Source of the DNA: a virus
Taxonomy: Duplodnaviria > Heunggongvirae > Uroviricota > Caudoviricetes
Virus record (IMG/VR): IMGVR_UViG_3300029641_000003
Strand: one strand, 5' to 3'
Length of the DNA stretch: 64,000 nt
Shown here: positions 6,013 through 57,876 of the stretch, in pieces
How positions within the stretch are numbered: position 1 is the stretch's first letter
How the letters are laid out: each line of letters begins with the position of its first letter
Notes under the pieces: model-generated
Told to the model about the DNA's origin: nothing
The model's database searches: none
Seen by the model: the letters and a program-made list of their open reading frames with translations, nothing else
Program-made: the position numbers and the translations under genes

Positions 6013-6363
6013 TCATTGTAGTGGGTGGCATTTAACGAAATCGATCACCCTATTCTGAACTTCGGAAAGAAGGTCTTTTTCACGCGCCAGGACGTCAGGA
6101 TATTGACGTTCTGGCCTTACCAGATGCCGGAGCTTCCCATTAAGCAGAATGGCCTCAGAAAACACTTTTACGCTGTGCTTTATCCCCTCTGTTTCACTTT
6201 TCAGCGTCAAAATAAAGCGCAATTGCTTATTAGCCTGATTCAGATTCAATACACGAATTTGCAGTTCGTCTATGCTGTTTCGCAATGGGATTGATGCCAC
6301 CACACTGGTGCAGTCTCTGATTGTCTGAATTGAACGGCTAACATTGAGAACGTTATTGTGCAT
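6013..6363 (-). CDS. Lxr-like paralog
   Basis: 116 aa, same length as ORF 6672..7022 and sharing SRSIQTIR/TRSMQTIR and F-x-x-KS segments; inverted relative to it. Confidence 0.4.
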   Translation of the reverse strand: MHNNVLNVSRSIQTIRDCTSVVASIPLRNSIDELQIRVLNLNQANKQLRFILTLKSETEGIKHSVKVFSEAILLNGKLRHLVRPERQYPDVLAREKDLLSEVQNRVIDFVKCHPLQ

Positions 6364-6395: not shown

Positions 6396-6647
6396 GTGTC
6401 AGATCGAAATATAGCAGCTAAAAGCCAGGAAGAGCGAGACAATGTGAACGTAGACCTTGCCGCCAGCGGCGTTGCTTACAAAGAACGGCTGAATATACCT
6501 GTGATTGCAGAGCAGGTGGCCCGTGAGCAACCGGAAAACCTGCGCGCCTATTTCATGGAACGGCTACGGCACTACCGGCAGTTAAGTCTCCAGTTGCCAA
6601 AAGGGAGCGATCCGGTGTATCAGAACGAGGATGCGCAAAAAAAATAA
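6396..6647 (+). CDS. hot: Hot, homolog of DNA polymerase III theta subunit
   Basis: 83 aa; [41 protein letters not shown] matches recalled HolE/theta pattern; GGGAGG RBS. Confidence 0.85.
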
Positions 6648-6671: not shown

Positions 6672-7022
6672 ATGCTTAACTATCACGACAACACGCGTTC
6701 TATGCAGACAATCCGCACCAATACAGCGGTGGTCGATAGCTTTCCTGTACATACTCAAGGCCGTGAAGATACCGTGGAAGTGCGACGCATGTTGTGTCGC
6801 CGGTCACCAGGCCACCAGCACTTCATCGTAACGTTTAAAAGCGATGTAGAGCGCGCCGAGAAAATCTCTAACTCCACATCTCTGGTTAAGCCATTGGCGG
6901 AGGTTATTGTGCGCAACAATAAGGCGCGCTTTGTCCTTGAGGAGCATCATTCTGATTTTAATGAAAAAATCGAGTCAAGCATTTTGCAATATATGAATGG
7001 CAAGTTCACGCCACCAATGTGA
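6672..7022 (+). CDS. lxr: Lxr-like protein
   Basis: 116-aa ORF in the hot-lxr-humD position of P1. Confidence 0.6.
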   Translation: MLNYHDNTRSMQTIRTNTAVVDSFPVHTQGREDTVEVRRMLCRRSPGHQHFIVTFKSDVERAEKISNSTSLVKPLAEVIVRNNKARFVLEEHHSDFNEKIESSILQYMNGKFTPPM

Positions 7023-8185: not shown

Positions 8186-8220
8186 AAAGAAGCCCGCTCA
8201 ACCAGGCGGGCTTCCTACTA

Positions 8221-9327
8221 TCACTCAATGATTTTTTCTGCTGTCAGCCAGCTAATTTCTTGCCTGTCTTTCGGCGGTTTTAGCATGTGGGCGTATTCAG
8301 CGACATTCTCCCACGGAATTGTTTTTGCCCACTCAACGATAGCATTGTGATCTGCAGTGAAGAGTGGAATGGTGTGCGATTTCAACCACTCTAATGTTGT
8401 AACGCCATGTTTTTTGGCGTGGTGCTGTGCATGATGCCGGGCTATCACTAGTAATGGCATTGTCCATTCACTACCATCATGCATCGTAAAGCGCATTGTT
8501 TTCGGCATATCTGATTCAAGAACAGCCTCCCGAATACCCGGGAACTCACCAAGAACCATGCGACGGTAATCATCGCCGCTTTTACCACCATACATTTCTG
8601 CGATCCCATCAAGATAATCTTGAGTAAGCAGAGGTGATTCTTCTGCGTTCAGCTTGATGGCAGTATAAATACCACATGGATTTTCTTCAGTTTTTGCACG
8701 ACCATGATGGGAATCGTAAAAGTGTCCATGTTCCTCCTCTGGAGGAGCAGACGTCAAAAGTATACGTGAGTCGCCACTAACTAAAGATGCTCTTAACATC
8801 CCGAATAGCCGATAGCTTACCAGAGCCGCGTCCATAACAATGATCAAAAGATGTTCAGCATAATATCCGGCTACATCTTCCTCATAATTTAGGCGATATG
8901 GTTTAATTTCGCAGCCCCAAGATTTTTGGTAACGATGATTGAGGCCATTTTGGTCGATTTGAAAATACTCTCCCAGTAATGGCGCTTTTGTATTAGCTTT
9001 CTCCCAATACATATTCATGAGTGAGAGAGTTACCATTCCATTACGCTCAAAGTCTGGAGCGACCATGACCGTTTTAGACTCAGGCATCAGGATCGTATAA
9101 AGGATACAAATGATAGCCATAGCAGACTTATGCCCTATCCCAGTCGGTGTGGTAACGCTGACTGCTGAACCTTTTTGTTGAATCGCCTCAACAATTAATT
9201 TTTGCTGGTGGGTTAACTTAACCCCCATCAACTCTTCTGCTGCTAATGCCCAGTCATGGCTATATTTGCTTACCAGCTCTCTCCACTCTGGTAATTCGGT
9301 GATGTTTTTAGGCGTCAGCATCAGCAT
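8221..9327 (-). CDS. PacB-paralogous terminase-like ATPase
   Basis: 368 aa; long stretch alignable by eye to PacB at 14676..16184 (YAEHLLIIVMD / HAEHLLLILDE; HGHFYDSHHGRAKTEENP / SGYFYESHHSRAKAEGNP; MVLGEFP / KVLGQFP). Confidence 0.7.
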   Translation of the reverse strand: MLMLTPKNITELPEWRELVSKYSHDWALAAEELMGVKLTHQQKLIVEAIQQKGSAVSVTTPTGIGHKSAMAIICILYTILMPESKTVMVAPDFERNGMVTLSLMNMYWEKANTKAPLLGEYFQIDQNGLNHRYQKSWGCEIKPYRLNYEEDVAGYYAEHLLIIVMDAALVSYRLFGMLRASLVSGDSRILLTSAPPEEEHGHFYDSHHGRAKTEENPCGIYTAIKLNAEESPLLTQDYLDGIAEMYGGKSGDDYRRMVLGEFPGIREAVLESDMPKTMRFTMHDGSEWTMPLLVIARHHAQHHAKKHGVTTLEWLKSHTIPLFTADHNAIVEWAKTIPWENVAEYAHMLKPPKDRQEISWLTAEKIIE

Positions 9328-18428: not shown

Positions 18429-19000
18429 AAAACCTCCCAGTCAGTAGCGATAATATCAACACCAGTTGCAAACCAGTCTGTCTGTGCCTGTAAATCCCCA
18501 TTCATCATTACCAGGCGAGGCATAACCATCACATCACAACCTTCAACAATATCGAATGCCTCTTCCGGCAGGAATTCGACGAGCTTTTCTTTGCTGCCAA
18601 CACTGCCACGGAGCATCGATATATAGCTCCCTTTAGGCCATGATGTTCGCCGGGCATCAAGCCCCTTCATCATCCAGTAAAAGGCCGATGAGAACGGGAT
18701 GTTCTTTTTGGCGATGAGCACGTTATTCGCTTCTGTGTACTTCAGGAACTTAATTAACCTTACCATTGACTCGGATAACGCAATGTACGGCTCATGATTG
18801 ATTGCTGACACGCTTACGCCGTGCAGTCCAACACTTACCACAGTCATATCACCGTTCTGTGCGGTTTCGATGTTGACGCCTTTACGAACTAACGCTGCAT
18901 AAAGCTCCTCGCGCTTTTGCGTCCAGCATTCTCGTCGCCCTATAAAGTCACTCAAAACGAGATCATCTTCTGAATACGCGTTATCGTTCGCCGTTAACAT
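18425..19000 (-). CDS. two-domain protein with C-terminal DUF2829/Tad2-like domain
   Basis: 191 aa; C-terminal ARRTSWPKGSYI ... TDWFATGVDIIATDWEVF resembles the 10121..10783 C-terminus. Confidence 0.55.
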   Translation of the reverse strand: MLTANDNAYSEDDLVLSDFIGRRECWTQKREELYAALVRKGVNIETAQNGDMTVVSVGLHGVSVSAINHEPYIALSESMVRLIKFLKYTEANNVLIAKKNIPFSSAFYWMMKGLDARRTSWPKGSYISMLRGSVGSKEKLVEFLPEEAFDIVEGCDVMVMPRLVMMNGDLQAQTDWFATGVDIIATDWEVF

Positions 19001-19454: not shown

Positions 19455-19530
19455 TGGTGGCCCCTACCGGACTTGAACCGGTGACCGTGCGATTATGAGT
19501 CGCCCGCTCTAACCACTGAGCTAAAGGGCC
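19455..19530 (-). tRNA. tRNA with CAU anticodon (Ile2-like, or Met)
   Basis: Reverse complement GGCCCTTTAGCTCAGTGGTTAGAGCGGGCGACTCATAATCGCACGGTCACCGGTTCAAGTCCGGTAGGGGCCACCA folds as cloverleaf; resembles recalled E. coli ileX. Confidence 0.8.
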
Positions 19531-20486: not shown

Positions 20487-20562
20487 TGGTGCCGGTTAAC
20501 GGACTCGAACCGCTGACATCCTGCTTACAAGGCAGGCGCTCTACCAACTGAGCTAAACCGGC
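20487..20562 (-). tRNA. tRNA-Thr (UGU)
   Basis: Reverse complement GCCGGTTTAGCTCAGTTGGTAGAGCGCCTGCCTTGTAAGCAGGATGTCAGCGGTTCGAGTCCGTTAACCGGCACCA. Confidence 0.85.
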
Positions 20563-20639: not shown

Positions 20640-21950
20640 ACTTGCCGGGTACGTCTCCGGCGAGGGCTTCCACCTCCGTATGCTTTTCGGCGCACCGCGC
20701 CCTGGCTGCAATTCGGTAACAGGGGATGCACAACCCTGGCTTCCAGCGTGATTAGCGCCTTCAGCATGACGGGATATACCCGTTACAAGACATTATTCCA
20801 GAAAGCCATTAACCAATGGCTGTTACGCGGAAAGGACGTAACAGGTAAGGGCGCTGACCAGAAAGACCTGACCCTTCTCATTCATCTGGTTAATCACACC
20901 AGCGCCCTTGCCTGTTATGCCTCCCCGTTCCCTAATACACAGACGGGGACACTCTGCGGTCGATTTTTTGACGGGGGACGACTCATACCCCGTGGTGTCA
21001 GGCTTCTTAGGCCGCTACCATCATCAGATCATCGTTTGCATTTACTTTAATGGTCGGGTTCTAAACCGCCGCAAAGTCGCTAACCATGACGAAAACACTG
21101 AAAAAACACCCACCCGAAGGTGGGCAAATATCCCACTCGCGGTATTGCCACTTAGGCGTATGGTCAACCTGGCAACTCGGTGTCCTCAACGGGGAAGGAA
21201 TAACCCCGCCATACTTACCGCCGCGCCTGTCGCGGTTATCGCTACGTATCAACATAAAAGCCGACTGCCTGAGCAAGATTCACTTTCAAAGGCCCGCAGA
21301 AAGGAATCCATAGTCGGCTTTTATCTTGAAGCGGCTCTCTCTCCGCCCGTCACCGCTCTGTCTCGGTTGTCACGTTTGCCACGCCAGCCGTAACGAGGTT
21401 TAAAGTCTTTGCACGTTTCCATCACTCGACTGCCGTCTGTGGCTGTTCGTTGCAGCGGGGGTGCCTCCCCCTGGGGATATCCCCGGCCTTACCCCATTCT
21501 TTCAAGACACAATGCAAGGCCACATCCGCATAGGTGCATTACCGCAACGTTAAGGAGACTCAGAGTCAGCAAAATAAGAGGAAAACCCAACTCTGCGCCT
21601 CCTTAACGTTGAGGATGTGCACTGATGATGACCCGATGCAGCCTGGCCCACTTAACATACTCACTGCCAGATCATCATCAATGAACACCATAAAAAGACC
21701 TTCCGTGGCTCAAGTCACTGTCGTTTACTCCGTAAAATGCTCTCGCTGAAACCACTTTACGCACTAAACCTGCCGGGCATGTATTTGCACGGTGCCGGAG
21801 CTTTCCCTTACCTTAAAATTTACTTTCTAACACTTAAATTTGTTTGATGCTGGTGGGGAAAGACAATGAAGTGACTATCAAACCCGCAAGCGACATGGGA
21901 AGCTCCCCACCAGCACGAAAAATTCTATGTTAAGTTAACCCCATAATCAA
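20640..21950 (-). ncRNA. ORF-poor, structure-rich region; candidate non-coding RNA(s)
   Basis: 1.3 kb without a convincing ORF; several long perfect stems (21256..21322, 21457..21471, 21544..21610). Confidence 0.3.
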
Positions 21951-21951
21951 T

Positions 21952-21983
21952 ATGTTAGAAAAACAATTTTAATTTTCTAACAT
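21952..21983. promoter_or_regulatory. palindromic operator pair
   Basis: ATGTTAGAAAAACAATTTTAATTTTCTAACAT downstream of the 402-aa gene. Confidence 0.6.
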
Positions 21984-23193: not shown

Positions 23194-23213
23194 GTTTGTT
23201 CCCTTTCTTGAAA

Positions 23214-23228
23214 TTAGTTTTCTAACAT
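23214..23228. promoter_or_regulatory. operator-like motif
   Basis: TTAGTTTTCTAACAT, 20 bp upstream of the 402-aa gene start. Confidence 0.55.
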
Positions 23229-23825: not shown

Positions 23826-24272
23826 TTAATCAAGATTTACATATTCCGTGATAGCTTTTATGGCTTCATCGGCACTGCGCGCCTCAAAGCAGTAATAGCC
23901 TGCTTCCGTGAGGCGAGTCATCCAGACGAGCTGTTCGGGAGTCAGACGGTTTCTCCCGTGCTTCATCTCAATGCGCATTCCGTGATACCCACCACGAGCA
24001 AGGTCAATAGAAAGGTCCGGATAGCCCTTCTTCTGACCTTCTGCCACCATCTTAATGGCTGTCCTTTTGCCTCTCAGGCCGCCGTTCGGTGTTGAGTGTG
24101 TGTGCTCATACACGTATCGCATGTTGCGATACAGCCAATCCAGAACGCGAACCTGTTCGTAATGTTCGTAATTCCGTTTTAATAAGTCAGGTTTTCTTTC
24201 TAACTCTCTCAGTGCAGCAGCGTGCGGGGATATTTCAGAATACGCACTATGATGCCTGCGTCTTCGCATCAA
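23826..24272 (-). CDS. VRR-NUC domain nuclease
   Basis: 148 aa; GYPDLSIDLARGGYHGMRIEMKHG fits PD-(D/E)xK / VRR-NUC pattern; operator-like motif at 24271..24283. Confidence 0.7.
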   Translation of the reverse strand: MMRRRRHHSAYSEISPHAAALRELERKPDLLKRNYEHYEQVRVLDWLYRNMRYVYEHTHSTPNGGLRGKRTAIKMVAEGQKKGYPDLSIDLARGGYHGMRIEMKHGRNRLTPEQLVWMTRLTEAGYYCFEARSADEAIKAITEYVNLD

Positions 24273-24283
24273 ATTTCTAACAC
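24271..24283. promoter_or_regulatory. operator-like motif
   Basis: AAATTTCTAACAC immediately upstream of the VRR-NUC gene. Confidence 0.5.
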
Positions 24284-34152: not shown

Positions 34153-34183
34153 GATTAGAAACATCAATTTAATTTTCTAACAT
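34153..34183. promoter_or_regulatory. palindromic operator pair
   Basis: GATTAGAAACATCAATTTAATTTTCTAACAT. Confidence 0.6.
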
Positions 34184-35370: not shown

Positions 35371-35385
35371 GTGTTAGAAAATTAA
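35371..35385. promoter_or_regulatory. operator-like motif
   Basis: GTGTTAGAAAATTAA. Confidence 0.5.
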
Positions 35386-35398
35386 GCTATCTTTTAGC

Positions 35399-45169: not shown

Positions 45170-48100
45170 TTAATAACCATAAGCAACATACTGTGCATAT
45201 ATTTTATCAGTGGAGCTACTTTTCACTGTAAAACCAGTGACTGAGTGGTTATATGTATAAAGAATTGAATTGACAGCATTCCCGCTGTGAGGCGAAATCA
45301 CAACTACCGCACACGCCTCAGGAAAAGTAGTCGGAAAGTTAACCACGCTTCCTGGTGTTAAATTTGTTATAAACCCCCACTGCATCATCACCTTAGTTGA
45401 TGTATCCTTATGCCATCCATGAATGTTGGCATATGCAGTGTTTTTAGCCTGATATTTCGTGTTGAAATTACTATAGTTACCAGGGGTAATCTGACCAGCG
45501 GCAGATAAATTCCCCATAACCCTTACATGACCATCAGCACGTCCTAATTCTACGCGACCATCACCGCCATCTATCTTTAATGGAGTGTAAACGACATCAC
45601 CATTAACATTTTGCCCAGTGGTTGATATCTGGAAACTATATCCAGTATTAGTTATTAGGAATCCATAGTTATTATTATAAGTTAGCCGTATAGCATTTTG
45701 GCTGCTGGATATAATTTCACCGGTAACAGTACCACCTGTTGTTGGTAACGCACCAACATGACTTGCCGTTAATGTGATATCTGCGGAACCATCAAAAGCC
45801 ACGCCACTTATTTTCCTGGCTGTTTTTAACTTTGTCGCTGTAGCTGCATTACCAGTTGTATTTTGATTCCCGGCAATATTGACGCCCGGAAGATTGATGT
45901 TGGCGGTGCCATCAAACGAAACCCCGCCTATTGTGCGTGCTGTTTGCAGTTTTGTTGCAGTTGCGGCATTGCCAGTAGTGCTCTGATTACCTGTTTTATT
46001 CACGCCCGGCAGGTCGATATTTGCGGTGCCATTAAATGAAACACCACCAATAGTTCTTGCCGTTTGTAATTTCGTTGCAGACGCCGCGTTTCCGGTTGTG
46101 TTCTGGTTGCCTGTTGTATTTACACCAGGGATGGAATCCTTCGATGTGTAGACCTGCGCCCAATCAGACCATGCTGCATCTGTTGAATCTCTGCGAGAGC
46201 GAATAAAAGCCGGAGCATGAGCGCCACTTGTACCGCTCCAGCCTATGAACAACTCGCCTTCACCAACTGCCGTTGCGCCCTTAAGATGAAGCACATTCCC
46301 GTAAGCAGAAGGATAGCCGTTGTTGTACGCCTCATACATCTGCAATCCAGCAGCAGCACCTTGCGTTGTACCGGTGAGCGCAGTAACACGCCCTCTGGAC
46401 GTAATTGTTGGTATCGAAATGTTCGCAGAACCATCAAAATTAACACCGTTGATTTTGCGGGCTGTTTGCAGTTTTGTAGCGGTTGCAGCATTACCTGTTG
46501 TGTTCTGGTTACCGGCAATGTTCACACCCGGCAGGTTGATATTGGCGCTGCCATCAAATGACACTCCGCCGATTGTGCGTGCCGTCTGAAGTTTCGTTGC
46601 GGTTGCAGCATTGCCGGTAGTGCTCTGATTACCTGTTTTATTCACGCCTGGCAGGTCGATATTGGCGCTGCCATCAAATGACACCCCGCCGATTGTGCGT
46701 GCCGTCTTGAGCTTTGTCGCAGTATCTGCGTTTCCCGTCAAATTACCTGTAATGCCACCACTAACTGTTACCCCATTACCGATCGACACCAACCCAGTTC
46801 TTAAATTTATAGCAAAAGGTCTTAATGGGCCGATGTCACCATTTTCTCCCTCACCTTCATTTGTCGGGACAAGATGCAGAGATTCCTCGGATCTCCTGAA
46901 GATAAGGCCAAAGGACTGATTAAATATTCGAAGGGCATTTAATGTGCCAATTTTTAGTTCACCCCCCATTGTATCGCCAGAACGCTGAACTGCGTTACCA
47001 GCTTGAGAAGCAATATCCGTTAAGCCAAGATCTTCTGGGGTTAGAGTAATATCGGCAGACCCATCAAATGCCACACCGTTAATCTTTCTGGCTGTTTTTA
47101 ATTTCGTCGCAGTATCGGCGTTCCCGGTCAGCGTACCAGTGATCCCCGCGCTGAAAGTCTGGCGCGCACTCCAGGTATTAGCCGTGCTCAACAGGGGGAT
47201 CTTTTCTCCGCTGGTTCCGAGTTCTCTTAAACCAAGGTATTGGATAACAGCCAGTGTGCTTGTTTTAGCAAGAATATCGCGACCGACTGACGTTAAATCA
47301 GTCTGGGCTACAGTGTCTGTTCCGGTAAAGTACGGTAATTTATTTGCTCCCGTCGCCAGGCCTGCGAGCGCGGTTAAGGTTGCGTCGAGAGGCTGCTTAC
47401 CTGCCAGTGCATTTGTCATTGTAGTCGCAAAGTTCGGGTCATTGCCCAGTGCTGCAGCAAGCTCATTCAGGGTATCAAGAGCTTCTGGTGATGAGCCGAC
47501 CAATGCAGAAATAGCGGCACGAACATAAGCGGTTGTTGCAATCTGAGTGTTGTTCGTACCTTGTGACGCCGTAGGAGCTGTTGGAACCCCCGTAAATGCC
47601 GGGCTTAATAACGGCGCTTTAAGAGCTAAAGCATCATTAATCGTCTGGCTAAACTGGGGATCATTGTTTATTGCATCTGCAATTTTTTTCAGCGTATCCA
47701 ACGCTGAAGGAGAACCATCAATAAGGGCGGTTATAGCGGCCTGAACAAAGGCAGCGTTTGCGATTTGTGTACTGTTTGTACCTTGTTCCGGAGTTGGAGA
47801 TGTAGGGATACCTATAAATTCCGGGCTATCAACCGGAGCTTTAAGTTTATTTAACGTGCTGATAGCAAGGGGGGTTGCAGCTTTATATTCTTCGTCACTA
47901 TCCAAAGCACTGGAGAACTCAACACCTACAGCACGATTAGCGCGATATTTAGTGCTAATCATATCTGCGGTAACGGCTTGAGCATTGTCAGGCACGATCA
48001 CTCGGCATATCTCAATCTGGTTAGATGCTATGCCCTCATCAACGAGAGCTATAATTCTCGCTGCGCTAATATCCGATGAACTATCTACCTGGCTGGTTTT

Positions 48101-48439
48101 CACTCCATGTTCGTAATTAGCTTCAAGAACGATGATTGTCGTTACACCTGCTTCTACAGGAACAACAACATCACTGACTTGCTGCACGGATATCTGACAT
48201 TTACCCACGTCAACTGAAGCCGCCCCTCTTCCCTCTGTTTTCTCGGATGTAATCCGCACAAACAGGCCATCCCCTGGCACAGGTTCAAACCCACAGTACA
48301 CACCGGGCAGAACGATATTTTTCATCTTCCTGTTTAGAGCTTCGGTGCTATACAGCTCAAAGTATTGCATGTCTGCAATTAGTGGCGCGGAAATGTCCGA
48401 AGATAAGGTGACAATGTTCTTTACTTTATCTGCGCACAT
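45170..48439 (-). CDS. tail fibre protein (S-like) with internal tandem repeats
   Basis: 1089 aa; repeated ~37-aa units TGNQxTTGNAATATKLQTARTIGGVSFDGSANIxLPGVN; C-terminus ...YAQYVAYGY. Confidence 0.85.
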   Translation of the reverse strand: MCADKVKNIVTLSSDISAPLIADMQYFELYSTEALNRKMKNIVLPGVYCGFEPVPGDGLFVRITSEKTEGRGAASVDVGKCQISVQQVSDVVVPVEAGVTTIIVLEANYEHGVKTSQVDSSSDISAARIIALVDEGIASNQIEICRVIVPDNAQAVTADMISTKYRANRAVGVEFSSALDSDEEYKAATPLAISTLNKLKAPVDSPEFIGIPTSPTPEQGTNSTQIANAAFVQAAITALIDGSPSALDTLKKIADAINNDPQFSQTINDALALKAPLLSPAFTGVPTAPTASQGTNNTQIATTAYVRAAISALVGSSPEALDTLNELAAALGNDPNFATTMTNALAGKQPLDATLTALAGLATGANKLPYFTGTDTVAQTDLTSVGRDILAKTSTLAVIQYLGLRELGTSGEKIPLLSTANTWSARQTFSAGITGTLTGNADTATKLKTARKINGVAFDGSADITLTPEDLGLTDIASQAGNAVQRSGDTMGGELKIGTLNALRIFNQSFGLIFRRSEESLHLVPTNEGEGENGDIGPLRPFAINLRTGLVSIGNGVTVSGGITGNLTGNADTATKLKTARTIGGVSFDGSANIDLPGVNKTGNQSTTGNAATATKLQTARTIGGVSFDGSANINLPGVNIAGNQNTTGNAATATKLQTARKINGVNFDGSANISIPTITSRGRVTALTGTTQGAAAGLQMYEAYNNGYPSAYGNVLHLKGATAVGEGELFIGWSGTSGAHAPAFIRSRRDSTDAAWSDWAQVYTSKDSIPGVNTTGNQNTTGNAASATKLQTARTIGGVSFNGTANIDLPGVNKTGNQSTTGNAATATKLQTARTIGGVSFDGTANINLPGVNIAGNQNTTGNAATATKLKTARKISGVAFDGSADITLTASHVGALPTTGGTVTGEIISSSQNAIRLTYNNNYGFLITNTGYSFQISTTGQNVNGDVVYTPLKIDGGDGRVELGRADGHVRVMGNLSAAGQITPGNYSNFNTKYQAKNTAYANIHGWHKDTSTKVMMQWGFITNLTPGSVVNFPTTFPEACAVVVISPHSGNAVNSILYTYNHSVTGFTVKSSSTDKIYAQYVAYGY

Positions 48440-56403: not shown

Positions 56404-56647
56404 GGATTCCTCCGAAAGCTAGGTTCAGTTAGTTTTTCAGAGGATAGGGAGTGTGTGATTTGTGGGAGTATTGAATAAGGATCTTTGTCGATCGAACAGC
56501 AACTATTGAGGGTGATTTTTACACCTTAAGTGACGCAATTCACATATCCACAGAGTATTTTTATAAACCTTTTTCTCTTTTTAATCCTTTTTAGATCCTT
56601 TTTAGGCATCGCGGAGGCCAGGGGTGGCGGGGCTTGTAGAGGACCAA

Positions 56648-56765
56648 GGTGTAAGATTTGCCCTCAATTAAGCTATTGAGGTGTAAGATTTGCCCTCAGC
56701 CGGTGTAAGATTTGCCCTCAAAAGGTGTAGTAATTGCCCTCAAAGTGATGTAAAAATTGCCCTCA
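56648..56765. repeat. five direct 19-bp iterons upstream of rep
   Basis: GGTGTAAGATTTGCCCTCA x3, GGTGTAGTAATTGCCCTCA, GATGTAAAAATTGCCCTCA, spaced about 22 bp. Confidence 0.9.
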
Positions 56766-56789
56766 CCATTTGAAGGATCACACAGGGTT

Positions 56790-57545
56790 ATGAACAGAGC
56801 GGAATTAACGGCAAAAGCCGTCAGTCTGATTGAATCAGCGACACCAATTAGCCGTAGCTTGGCGCAGGCCAATGAGATCACAGAGGCGGCTTATCACCTG
56901 ACACGCGACCAAAAGCGACTGTTGTTTATTGTGGTGGGAAGACTTCGCTATGCTTCTAAGGATGGCGTTCTTGGTTCAGGTGCCTGTGAGTTGACGGTCA
57001 ACGAATATGCAGAGATGTATAATTTGCCCTCTGCTGAAGCCAGCAAGGATATTCGTAAAGCTATCTCCGGACTTAGTGAGAAGAAAGTCACGATATATAA
57101 CCCTGATGAATCAACCGAATCAGAAGACAGTTATGAGTCTTATCCCTGGATGATTAAGGAGGCTTACTCACCACGCCGGGGGACTTACATTATTCATCTG
57201 AATCCATATCTCATGCCGTTTTTTACTCTGCTTGATAAGAGGTTCACGAGGCTGAATTTTACTGAAGTGTCTCGCCTGACAAACCCTTATTCTATGCGGC
57301 TTTATGAGTCCTTATGCCAGTATAGAAAGGATGATGGGAGCGGCTTCGCTATACTTGGCGTTGAATGGATGCGGGAGCGTTATGGTCTTCCCAAAAGCTA
57401 TCAACGGTACGCCGAATTTAAGAGAAGCTTTCTGGCAAAAGCTGTAGCTGAAATCGAAAAAAACACAAAAATGAAAATAGTTTTCTCAGAGGTTACAGAA
57501 GGTGGCAGAGTTACAAAAATAAAATTCACCTATCAGCAGTCTTAA
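56790..57545 (+). CDS. repA: Rep_3-family replication initiator (RepE/RepFIB-like)
   Basis: 251 aa from ATG 56790; alignable to recalled F RepE (AAYHLTRDQKRLLFIVVG, SYPWMIKEAYSP, NPYSMRLYESLCQYRKDDGSG). Confidence 0.9.
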   Translation: MNRAELTAKAVSLIESATPISRSLAQANEITEAAYHLTRDQKRLLFIVVGRLRYASKDGVLGSGACELTVNEYAEMYNLPSAEASKDIRKAISGLSEKKVTIYNPDESTESEDSYESYPWMIKEAYSPRRGTYIIHLNPYLMPFFTLLDKRFTRLNFTEVSRLTNPYSMRLYESLCQYRKDDGSGFAILGVEWMRERYGLPKSYQRYAEFKRSFLAKAVAEIEKNTKMKIVFSEVTEGGRVTKIKFTYQQS

Positions 57546-57824
57546 GGGCAATTTCTACACCTCTCTGTAGGTGTAGGATTTGCCCTTAAAGATGGGAGAT
57601 TGAGGGCAATTCTTACATCATTAGTTAGTTGGTTGGATCTTTAACGGCTAACATTATTTGTAATTTATTGATTAATAAGGAATGTGTAAAAATCACCCTC
57701 AGATGGCATCGTATGCTATAGCTATTTTTATCGCACTACTGTTGAATGTTTTATGGTTGTAACGCGTTGATTTTGTTGTGATGTGTAAAAAATGCCATCA
57801 TTGACGTAAACAGCAGGTGTAGAT
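57545..57824. repeat. iteron cluster downstream of rep, mixed orientation
   Basis: AGGGCAATTTCTACACC, GTGTAGGATTTGCCCTT, GAGGGCAATTCTTACATC, TGTGTAAAAATCACCCTCA, GGTGTAGATATTGCCCTCA. Confidence 0.8.
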
Positions 57825-57876
57825 ATTGCCCTCAAGTTTGCCCCTTCCCCACCTTCTCGCACTTTAATACTGCATT

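Follow-up and report, generated by a model that had tools for sequence, protein, structure and literature searches.

The window analysed here is a 64,000-nucleotide (nt) stretch of DNA from a virus of the class Caudoviricetes (IMG/VR record IMGVR_UViG_3300029641_000003). Its subject is a minus-strand gene at 8221..9321 whose product is a paralogue of PacB, the large terminase subunit encoded elsewhere in the same window. The coding sequence comprises 366 amino acids (aa) from an ATG at 9321 to a stop codon at 8221-8223; the open frame continues upstream to an ATG at 9327, giving 368 aa. Because the sequence GGAGG lies at 9333-9329, 6 nt ahead of the ATG at 9321, and because homologues begin with MLTPKN, the gene probably starts at 9321. 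Ten nt past the stop codon is a terminator-like hairpin, recognised by consensus match only (GCCCGC-N8-GCGGGC then TTCTTTTC; 8190..8211, minus strand). The protein has two parts: an N-terminal pseudo-ATPase domain (aa 3-265 of the 368-aa frame; 8533..9321, minus strand), delimited by BLASTP and by a Foldseek search with an AlphaFold2 (AF2) model, and a C-terminal phage domain of about 100 aa (aa 266-368; 8224..8532, minus strand), delimited by its relatives at E<1e-3 and by an AF2 model, which we refer to as domain X.

The genuine PacB (502 aa; 14676..16184, minus strand) has intact Walker A (SGHGTGKS) and Walker B (LILDEAS) motifs and is encoded beside pacA (16184-17548), the pair occupying 14676-17548. 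PacB and the paralogue are the only PacB-like open reading frames (ORFs) in the window. The two are 34% identical across 258 aligned residues with two gaps (BLASTP, E=1e-48; aa 7-263 of the paralogue against 8-264 of PacB), a span that takes in the whole ATPase domain and reaches far beyond the P-loop, which is the least conserved part of the aligned region. A preliminary description, made from the sequence alone, had proposed a paralogue of the PacB ATPase region, alignable over more than 100 residues, about 130 aa shorter than PacB, lacking the nuclease half and placed in a cargo operon. The proposal holds in each respect: the match is far beyond chance and was if anything understated, the difference in length is 134 aa, and the gene sits among accessory genes. 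That description did not include the degenerate Walker B motif, the separate C-terminal domain, the coupling to isaA or the swapping of the ATPase-like module, all of which are taken up below.

Structure and wider sequence searches agree with this assignment. The best matches in the Protein Data Bank (PDB) to the AF2 model of the whole protein are the ATPase domains of large terminases from HK97, P74-26, Sf6, T4 (gp17) and D6E (Foldseek, E ~1e-6); the model is of moderate quality (pLDDT 61) and poor at aa 195-276, and served only to confirm the class of fold. Neither the family profile nor that of domain X found anything significant among PDB sequences. Among phage genomes the nearest relatives outside the paralogue's own family are the PacB proteins of P1, P7, D6, SJ46 and RCS47 (36-37% identity, tblastn), followed by terminases of Xanthomonas and Clostridium phages at about 25%. 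The protein as a whole matches the profile of phrog_5902, a family of unknown function, at E=2.2e-127 (aa 7-367 against positions 3-358 of 359). A homologous ASCE-type packaging ATPase domain is thus present, as both the BLASTP match and the Foldseek matches to large-terminase (TerL) ATPase domains attest.

The likeness to a terminase ends there. Past aa 263 there is no BLASTP similarity to the nuclease half of PacB, and hhalign finds domain X unrelated to PacB aa 265-502 (probability 0.2%). The genomic context is also not that of a large terminase gene: the gene immediately upstream is isaA, whose product is without similarity to PacA, and the pacA-pacB pair lies elsewhere. The idea that IsaA is a PacA paralogue, such that isaA and the gene next to it would form a "shadow pacase", was rejected for want of any BLASTP similarity. 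The paralogue is homologous to terminase, yet it is not a terminase.

An alignment was made of the window protein, PacB and the paralogue family, whose five to six allele classes are 47-95% identical. Opposite the Walker A motif of PacB the window protein carries TTPTGIGHKS (aa 59-68; 9124..9153, minus strand), the deviant P-loop remarked upon in the preliminary description. Across alleles TTPxGIG is conserved, whereas the position of the lysine reads HK, QK, RP, RA or ET; besides GIGHKS in the window the variants are GIGQKT, GIGRPQ, GIGRAP and GIGETS, and none conforms to GxxxxGK[ST]. The Walker B motif is also degenerate: HLLIIVMDAA (8824..8853, minus strand) stands where PacB has HLLLILDEAS, and the alleles read IVMDA, IVTEA, IVAEA, IIVDS, IVVNA or IVINS against LILDEA in PacB. 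The magnesium-binding aspartate is always replaced by a hydrophobic or small residue (M, T, A, V or I), and the position of the catalytic glutamate is D, E or N according to allele. Genuine PacB-type terminases recovered by the same search keep DEASG, and keep GTGK[ST] where the N-terminus is present (P0274). As neither the Walker A lysine nor the Walker B Asp-Glu pair is conserved across the family, we regard the paralogue as a pseudo-ATPase.

Other parts of the domain have been retained. The paralogues and PacB have in common an HQQ adenine/Q motif, the coupling motif R-x-L-x-x-S-x-P, and an invariant run at aa 186-263 that includes GxFYDSHH, NPxG and YGG...LGEFP. The coupling motif ILLTSAPP and the adjoining GHFYDSHH (8704..8763, minus strand) mark the start of this best-conserved stretch and are found also in the genuine PacB-type terminases P0273, P0274, P0288 and P0298. 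Loss of catalytic residues together with retention of structural and interface residues is the pattern expected of a pseudoenzyme that has kept a binding function. The net charge of the ATPase-like domain ranges from -10 to -0.3 in full-length alleles against +6 to +8 in PacB, and a domain that is acidic to near-neutral fits the loss of a role in gripping DNA.

The gene is under purifying selection and is not decaying. The ratio dN/dS is 0.2-0.4 in the ATPase-like part, at high (saturating) dS; the full-length frame is intact in 164 plasmids; the corresponding database clusters contain from 100 to 851 member sequences; and some 75 columns are invariant across alleles that are only 47-95% identical to one another. 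Truncated forms do occur (P0006, P0007, P0271 and P0272).

Domain X is a family in its own right. When 1.84 billion representative proteins were searched exhaustively with aa 262-368 (phmmer), 171 relatives emerged at E<1e-3, for the most part free-standing proteins about 100 aa long that are encoded on metagenomic phage contigs. They share the motif MPDGSxWxVPV..IA..RA.HYA...SL.EDTLPLF..D..EI.DWA.NNM.W.DV...DYQEGWVNG. The window copy meets the family profile over the whole domain (E=2e-31 to the A3 profile) and retains the conserved positions G, W, P, A, A, T, P, F, W, A, W and W. The AF2 model of the domain is confident (pLDDT 90.6) and is without a structural match in the PDB (best Foldseek E 1.3); this result, together with the hhalign comparison above, led us to reject the possibility that domain X is a remnant of the nuclease domain. 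There is no Pfam or NCBIfam model for it. Within PHROGs it occurs only at the C-termini of phrog_5902, the paralogue family, and of phrog_17928, the type of Xanthomonas phage CP2 ORF36, which has a DUF1351-like N-terminus. Free-standing members are usually acidic (median pI 4.7), whereas the window copy is near-neutral (pI 6.5).

The company that domain X keeps provides some information. In a Mu-like phage a stand-alone copy immediately precedes the genes for both terminase subunits, small and large; the domain X gene of the P1-like Cronobacter phage JK004 is two genes past a DnaB-like helicase; other stand-alone copies adjoin RecE-like or RecT/RNase T/SbcC-like genes, or sit in arrays of small early genes. 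A survey of 80 IMG/VR loci (72 non-redundant), in which immediate same-strand neighbours were scanned against Pfam, found most neighbours to be without a Pfam match. Those with a match upstream were Mu Gam (5), PAPS reductase-like (4), DnaB (3), RecT (3) and YqaJ; those downstream were RdgC (5), integrase (5), Ead/Ea22 (3), SbcC-like (2), ERF, Dam, Lar and one GpA-type terminase. DUF1351 has itself been reported in the same position as Mu Gam beside modules of annealing protein and single-stranded DNA-binding protein (SSB) (PMC8093625). The counts are small, and on this footing domain X appears to be an accessory module of phage early regions associated with DNA-end, recombination and replication genes.

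One locus carries the two parts in reversed order. On contig ABHTOV040000060.1 of GCA_024867085.4 (L018, 8001-8741) domain X comes first and a lysine-less PacB-like module second; the ATPase-like part is truncated at about 130 residues, and no gene is called in the roughly 1.7 kb that follow. Genes for AbiH and for a RecA-dependent nuclease lie near this reversed-order gene.

The paralogue is closely tied to isaA. Its start lies 11 nt upstream of the isaA stop codon (9308-9310), such that the two genes overlap, and the same overlap recurs in both P1-type and D6-type elements; on this basis the paralogue is probably translationally coupled to IsaA. The window's IsaA-like protein (9308..10114, minus strand) is 46% identical to P1 IsaA and 71% identical to D6 orf113. 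It is very acidic (net charge -21), finds no Pfam, NCBIfam or PDB sequence match, and can be assigned to a family only through a PHROG of unknown function. In P1 isaA is non-essential (PMC10695390).

Full-length homologues of the paralogue (48% identical) are present in the wild P1-type genomes MH422554, MH445380 and vB_EcoM-813R1, between ssb-isaA and hxr, and with a start that again overlaps the end of isaA. The reference genome of laboratory P1 holds IS1 and isaB in this slot. Nucleotide homology between a wild P1-type genome and reference P1 ends with the final base of isaA and begins again precisely at hxr; from these breakpoints it follows that reference P1 is without the gene and that the slot was replaced rather than interrupted. 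P1 IsaB was considered as a broken remainder of the paralogue and rejected: the two show no similarity, and the slot is bounded by the same breakpoints. D6 also is without the paralogue and has a pdcA-like ORF in its place. The isaA-IS1-isaB interval is the published variation hot spot RD-2 (PMC6906374).

Among the 743 plasmids in PLSDB with a PacB-like match, 164 (~22%) carry a full-length paralogue, and these fall into identity classes of about 97, 82, 64 and 49%. All of the PLSDB records listed annotate it as "hypothetical protein". Two public records instead label it "terminase large subunit" (MH422554.1, L002 4971-6065, protein AXF39147.1; and P0005). This label is wrong: genomes so annotated seem to encode a second large terminase, and automated classification of phages by their terminase, like the prediction of packaging strategy, can be misled. 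The family is thus already in databases as hypothetical proteins (phrog_5902), and literature searches on isaA/pacB, on terminase paralogues as decoys and on phage D6 turned up no paper describing the gene. The absence of the gene from the laboratory P1 reference may explain why those searches yielded no study.

A gene-by-gene comparison of three D6-type elements, two of which (L019 and L020) are nearly isogenic, revealed how the paralogue varies. Between L019 and L020 identity is 99% for PacA, 98.8% for PacB, 100% for C1, 99.4% for the Cre-like protein, 98.8% for IsaA, 97.6% for the dUTPase and at least 98% for Doc, Phd and HumD. Their paralogues are 65% identical overall: 46% over residues 1-200, 74% over residues 200-265 and 98% over domain X. 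The only other divergent gene in the block is that for a Tad2-like (anti-Thoeris-like) protein (68%, with different lengths). A nucleotide comparison of the window with L006, which is the same contig as L019, places a junction inside the paralogue gene near nt 8721, downstream of which domain X, doc, phd and humD show 93% DNA identity; domain X by itself is 97% identical, with a dS of 0.06-0.10. This pattern implies that the ATPase-like module is exchanged as a cassette, independently of the element's own terminase, and that the cassettes are drawn from a small pool of old alleles.

If the module were adapted to the resident pacase, then the two should vary together. This possibility was rejected, the modules being 46% identical where PacA and PacB are about 99% identical, and the independence weakens any case for co-evolution with the element's own PacA or PacB. 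Variation in the ATPase-like module resembles that of specificity or conflict determinants. As a separate observation, PacA of the window is only 74% identical to that of L019 and PacB 92%, which suggests from sequence comparison that PacA, the pac-recognition subunit, diverges faster than PacB; PacA as called in L020 is 326 aa long rather than 454 aa.

The element to which the gene belongs is a relative of Escherichia phage D6, a P1-family plasmid prophage: DNA around the paralogue is about 84% identical to D6, and the window has a gene complement of phd/doc, humD, a Cre-like recombinase, pacA/pacB and a P7-type C1 repressor. The paralogue is the final gene of a tightly packed minus-strand block that converges on doc. 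The block is headed by the cre-like gene (12191..13219) and continues with two small ORFs, the dUTPase gene (10798..11292), the gene for the Tad2-like/DUF2829 protein (10121..10783), which is two genes upstream of the paralogue, and the isaA-like gene, all on the minus strand. A Tad2-like (Thoeris anti-defence 2, DUF2829) C-terminal domain occurs in two genes of the window, at 10121-10783 and at 18425-19000, both on the minus strand. Just past the cre-like gene is a strong hairpin, GTACCCTC-N10-GAGGGTAC (12110-12146, minus strand), which overlaps the listed TTG start (12118) of the next ORF; this ORF, listed at 114 aa, has homologues of 102 aa, and its true start is therefore probably 12 codons past the listed one.

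The annotated P1 record places a sigma-70 promoter carrying the C1 operator Ossb ahead of ssb-isaA, with only 30 bp between ssb and isaA. The P1 C1 operator consensus has no match in the window, and the P1 late-promoter pattern matches only at chance level. A 15-nt motif, TGTTAGAAAATTAAT, occurs here 14 times at up to three mismatches, against 2.4 expected, and none of 100 shuffles reached 14. The copies are mostly intergenic, twice form inverted pairs and once lie just upstream of c1. An exact copy (12176..12190, plus strand) separates the cre-like gene from the six-gene block of which the paralogue is the last member; others include 13573-13587, 18015-18044, 21818-21832, 21953-21982, 23213-23227, 24268-24282, 34168-34182 and 35372-35386. 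By analogy with P1, TGTTAGAAAATTAAT is probably the operator of the element's C1-type repressor, in which case the six-gene block would be an operon expressed early and under repressor control. Inspection of the sequence beside the motif gave no convincing sigma-70 promoter; a strong consensus promoter lies upstream of the cre-like gene (13390..13363). The operator context in P1-type elements and in the window leads us to infer that the paralogue is expressed in lytic growth and not in the lysogen. The c1 ORF itself (13538-14638, plus strand) is listed with 366 aa and a TTG start, 21 codons longer than its 345-aa homologues; because of this extra length, and of an operator-like motif inside the extension, the true start is probably near 13601.

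Four further features of the window were recorded in passing. Two 116-aa ORFs in opposite orientation (6013-6363, minus strand; 6672-7022, plus strand) are 35% identical over 84 residues (E=4e-9) and flank a small ORF at 6396-6647 that is positioned as the hot-like gene of D6. A 20-nt unit, AGGTGTAAGATTTGCCCTCA, is present at 56507-57834 in eight direct copies and in inverted copies on both sides of a 262-aa ORF (56757-57545); these repeats look like the iterons of a plasmid replication origin and its control locus. A 1089-aa ORF (45170-48439, minus strand) contains imperfect repeats of 104-300 nt at 45753-47128, 62-80% identical and spaced 120, 522 and 630 nt start-to-start. Finally, 19455-19525 and 20487-20557 are two 71-nt segments with 70% mutual identity that resemble minus-strand tRNA genes.

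What, then, might a protein of this kind do? Our preferred reading is that it works as a binding protein, one that imitates the terminase ATPase domain in a conflict between phage and host or between phages, and we put the probability of this reading at roughly 40%. The argument for binding runs as follows: the protein is no terminase; what selection has maintained is a non-catalytic protein of two domains, made along with IsaA; and its ATPase-like half varies independently of the pacase. The N-terminal 263 aa are an old duplicate of the packaging-ATPase domain of PacB that kept its fold, adenine/Q motif, coupling motif and lid region, and lost the residues for productive binding and hydrolysis of Mg-ATP, the nuclease half having been replaced by the compact domain X. 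Such a protein, probably coupled to the translation of IsaA, would be made in lytic growth from a repressor-controlled early operon. It should be unable to package or cut DNA, and would work by presenting a mimic of the ATPase domain. Its candidate partners are a terminase-sensing immune protein of the host or a packaging component of a competitor. The swappable module would set specificity, with domain X as the constant functional or anchoring part.

A more specific version may be entertained only tentatively, and we think it unlikely. The dead, swappable module would be bait for host sensors of the terminase ATPase fold, such as Avs1-3 or Upx-like proteins, or for the packaging proteins of a rival phage. 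Domain X would represent a new, widespread fold among phage early proteins, with the task of neutralising either the captured sensor or a host nuclease of DNA ends or recombination. The loss of the Walker motifs would be adaptive rather than decay, since it would take away the ATP-bound signature that Avs2 and Avs3 read. Upx is predicted to bind the unfolded ATPase core irrespective of sequence.

Several observations weigh against a role in conflict. Avs2 and Avs3 read terminase-bound ATP and active-site residues (PMC13601566), and a paralogue without the residues that they read may escape both sensors altogether. Searches of PADLOC-DB 2.0 found no match at E<=0.01 for the paralogue, for domain X alone or for the operon neighbours. 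The neighbourhoods of domain X indicate DNA metabolism rather than, in any obvious way, immunity. Ordinary mosaic recombination at RD-2 (PMC6906374) could give the same pattern of alleles. Nor is the charge of the ATPase-like domain uniform: it is almost neutral in the P1-type allele, and basic (+4.4) in the truncated allele P0007, which is without domain X.

In a rival account the paralogue regulates the packaging machinery of its own element. It might co-assemble with PacB through the lid and coupling region, or titrate PacA, and, being early, delay or tune pac cleavage and packaging until concatemers have formed. The strongest conservation between the paralogue and PacB does fall at aa 186-263, which comprises the coupling motif and lid region; the ATPase-like part has its closest relatives in the P1-group PacB proteins; the operon appears to be early; and satellites are known to inhibit terminases by binding, as does PLE Gpi. 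The absence of co-variation between module and pacase tells against regulation of this sort. So does the fact that laboratory P1, D6 and about 78% of PacB-bearing plasmids do without the gene and presumably still package as normal, and that isaA is dispensable in P1. We judge this account doubtful. Equally unlikely, in our view, is that the paralogue is a DNA-end or recombination accessory factor, in which domain X acts on a recombination or nuclease component of host or phage and the dead ATPase domain is a scaffold or localisation module. The annotated neighbours of domain X are dominated by Mu Gam, RecT, DnaB, RdgC, SbcC-like, ERF and YqaJ, and the placements in JK004 and ahead of the Mu-like terminase genes point the same way. 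So do the fusion to DUF1351-type proteins placed like Gam, the acidity of stand-alone members, a property of known nuclease inhibitors, and an operon shared with a Cre-like recombinase and dUTPase here and with ssb in P1-type elements. Most neighbours, however, are unannotated small early genes, and with no more than five of about 70 for any one family the association is weak. Such a factor would also leave unexplained why a terminase ATPase domain was recruited twice (the order is reversed in P0018) and why the module is hypervariable. It overlaps with a role in conflict if its target is a host nuclease used in defence.

The preliminary description had offered three functions: a packaging decoy, an abortive-infection sensor of terminase partners and an anti-defence factor. 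A defence or abortive-infection component of the prophage, which senses or poisons the packaging machinery of superinfecting phages, is the least favoured of these and very unlikely. A hypervariable module in isogenic backbones would suit it, and defence cargo is common at the hot spots of plasmid prophages (PMC6906374). In both lineages, however, the gene's early operon follows a C1-type operator and would probably be silent in the lysogen; the protein has neither an effector-like domain nor a PADLOC match; and the neighbours that could be identified are counter-defence-like or metabolic (Tad2-like, dUTPase) rather than defence genes. That the gene is a decaying, functionless duplicate of pacB is more improbable still. 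Its catalytic motifs are lost, truncated forms exist and many relatives dispense with it, but the intact frames, the low dN/dS, the invariant columns, the fusion to a conserved domain that folds well and the start that overlaps isaA largely refute decay.

Comparison with known systems helps to place the protein. With the PacB proteins of P1 and D6, to which it is homologous over the entire ATPase domain (34-37% identity) and of which its own genome also encodes a counterpart, it shares the Q motif, the S-x-P coupling motif and the clade motifs listed above; it differs in lacking the conserved Walker A lysine, the Walker B Asp-Glu and the nuclease domain, in not being encoded beside pacA, in being acidic to near-neutral rather than basic, and in being accessory. 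The nearest parallels in the literature are the T4 protein vs.8 and the proteins Ksap1 and Ksap2, terminase-ATPase-like phage proteins that activate Avs2 and that the authors suspect of an anti-defence role (PMC13601566), which sets a precedent for the conflict reading. By their description they are like the paralogue in resembling only the ATPase domain of large terminases, in being additional to the real terminase and in being restricted to a lineage. Unlike the paralogue family, vs.8 keeps Walker A and B (PMC13601566); the paralogue family is further set apart by its domain X and its probable translational link to isaA. With Gpi the paralogue may share a mode of action, that of a small non-enzymatic protein that binds a terminase subunit and alters what is packaged; Gpi is a satellite protein aimed at a helper phage, whereas the paralogue is borne by a phage-plasmid and derived from a terminase. 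The last 100 aa belong to the same family as stand-alone domain X and the C-terminus of phrog_17928 (single-sequence E down to 5e-13; G, W, P, A, T, F and W positions shared with the window copy), which are without a terminase-like part and, where free-standing, are acidic.

Large terminase subunits rank with the chief viral patterns that bacterial immune systems (Avs1-3, Upx) recognise, and accessory look-alikes of the terminase ATPase have been noticed only recently (PMC13601566). Such look-alikes are already recognised; what is new here is one that is catalytically dead, fused to an undescribed and widespread domain, and allele-swapped. Counting 171 representative clusters, and lacking a model in both Pfam and NCBIfam, domain X merits a family definition of its own. 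With the paralogue family there is now a clear example from the P1 lineage, which ranks with the best genetic systems available. The family is distinct in ways that can be tested: its catalytic site is gone, a widespread domain without structural match is attached, and the look-alike module is exchanged between otherwise identical plasmids.

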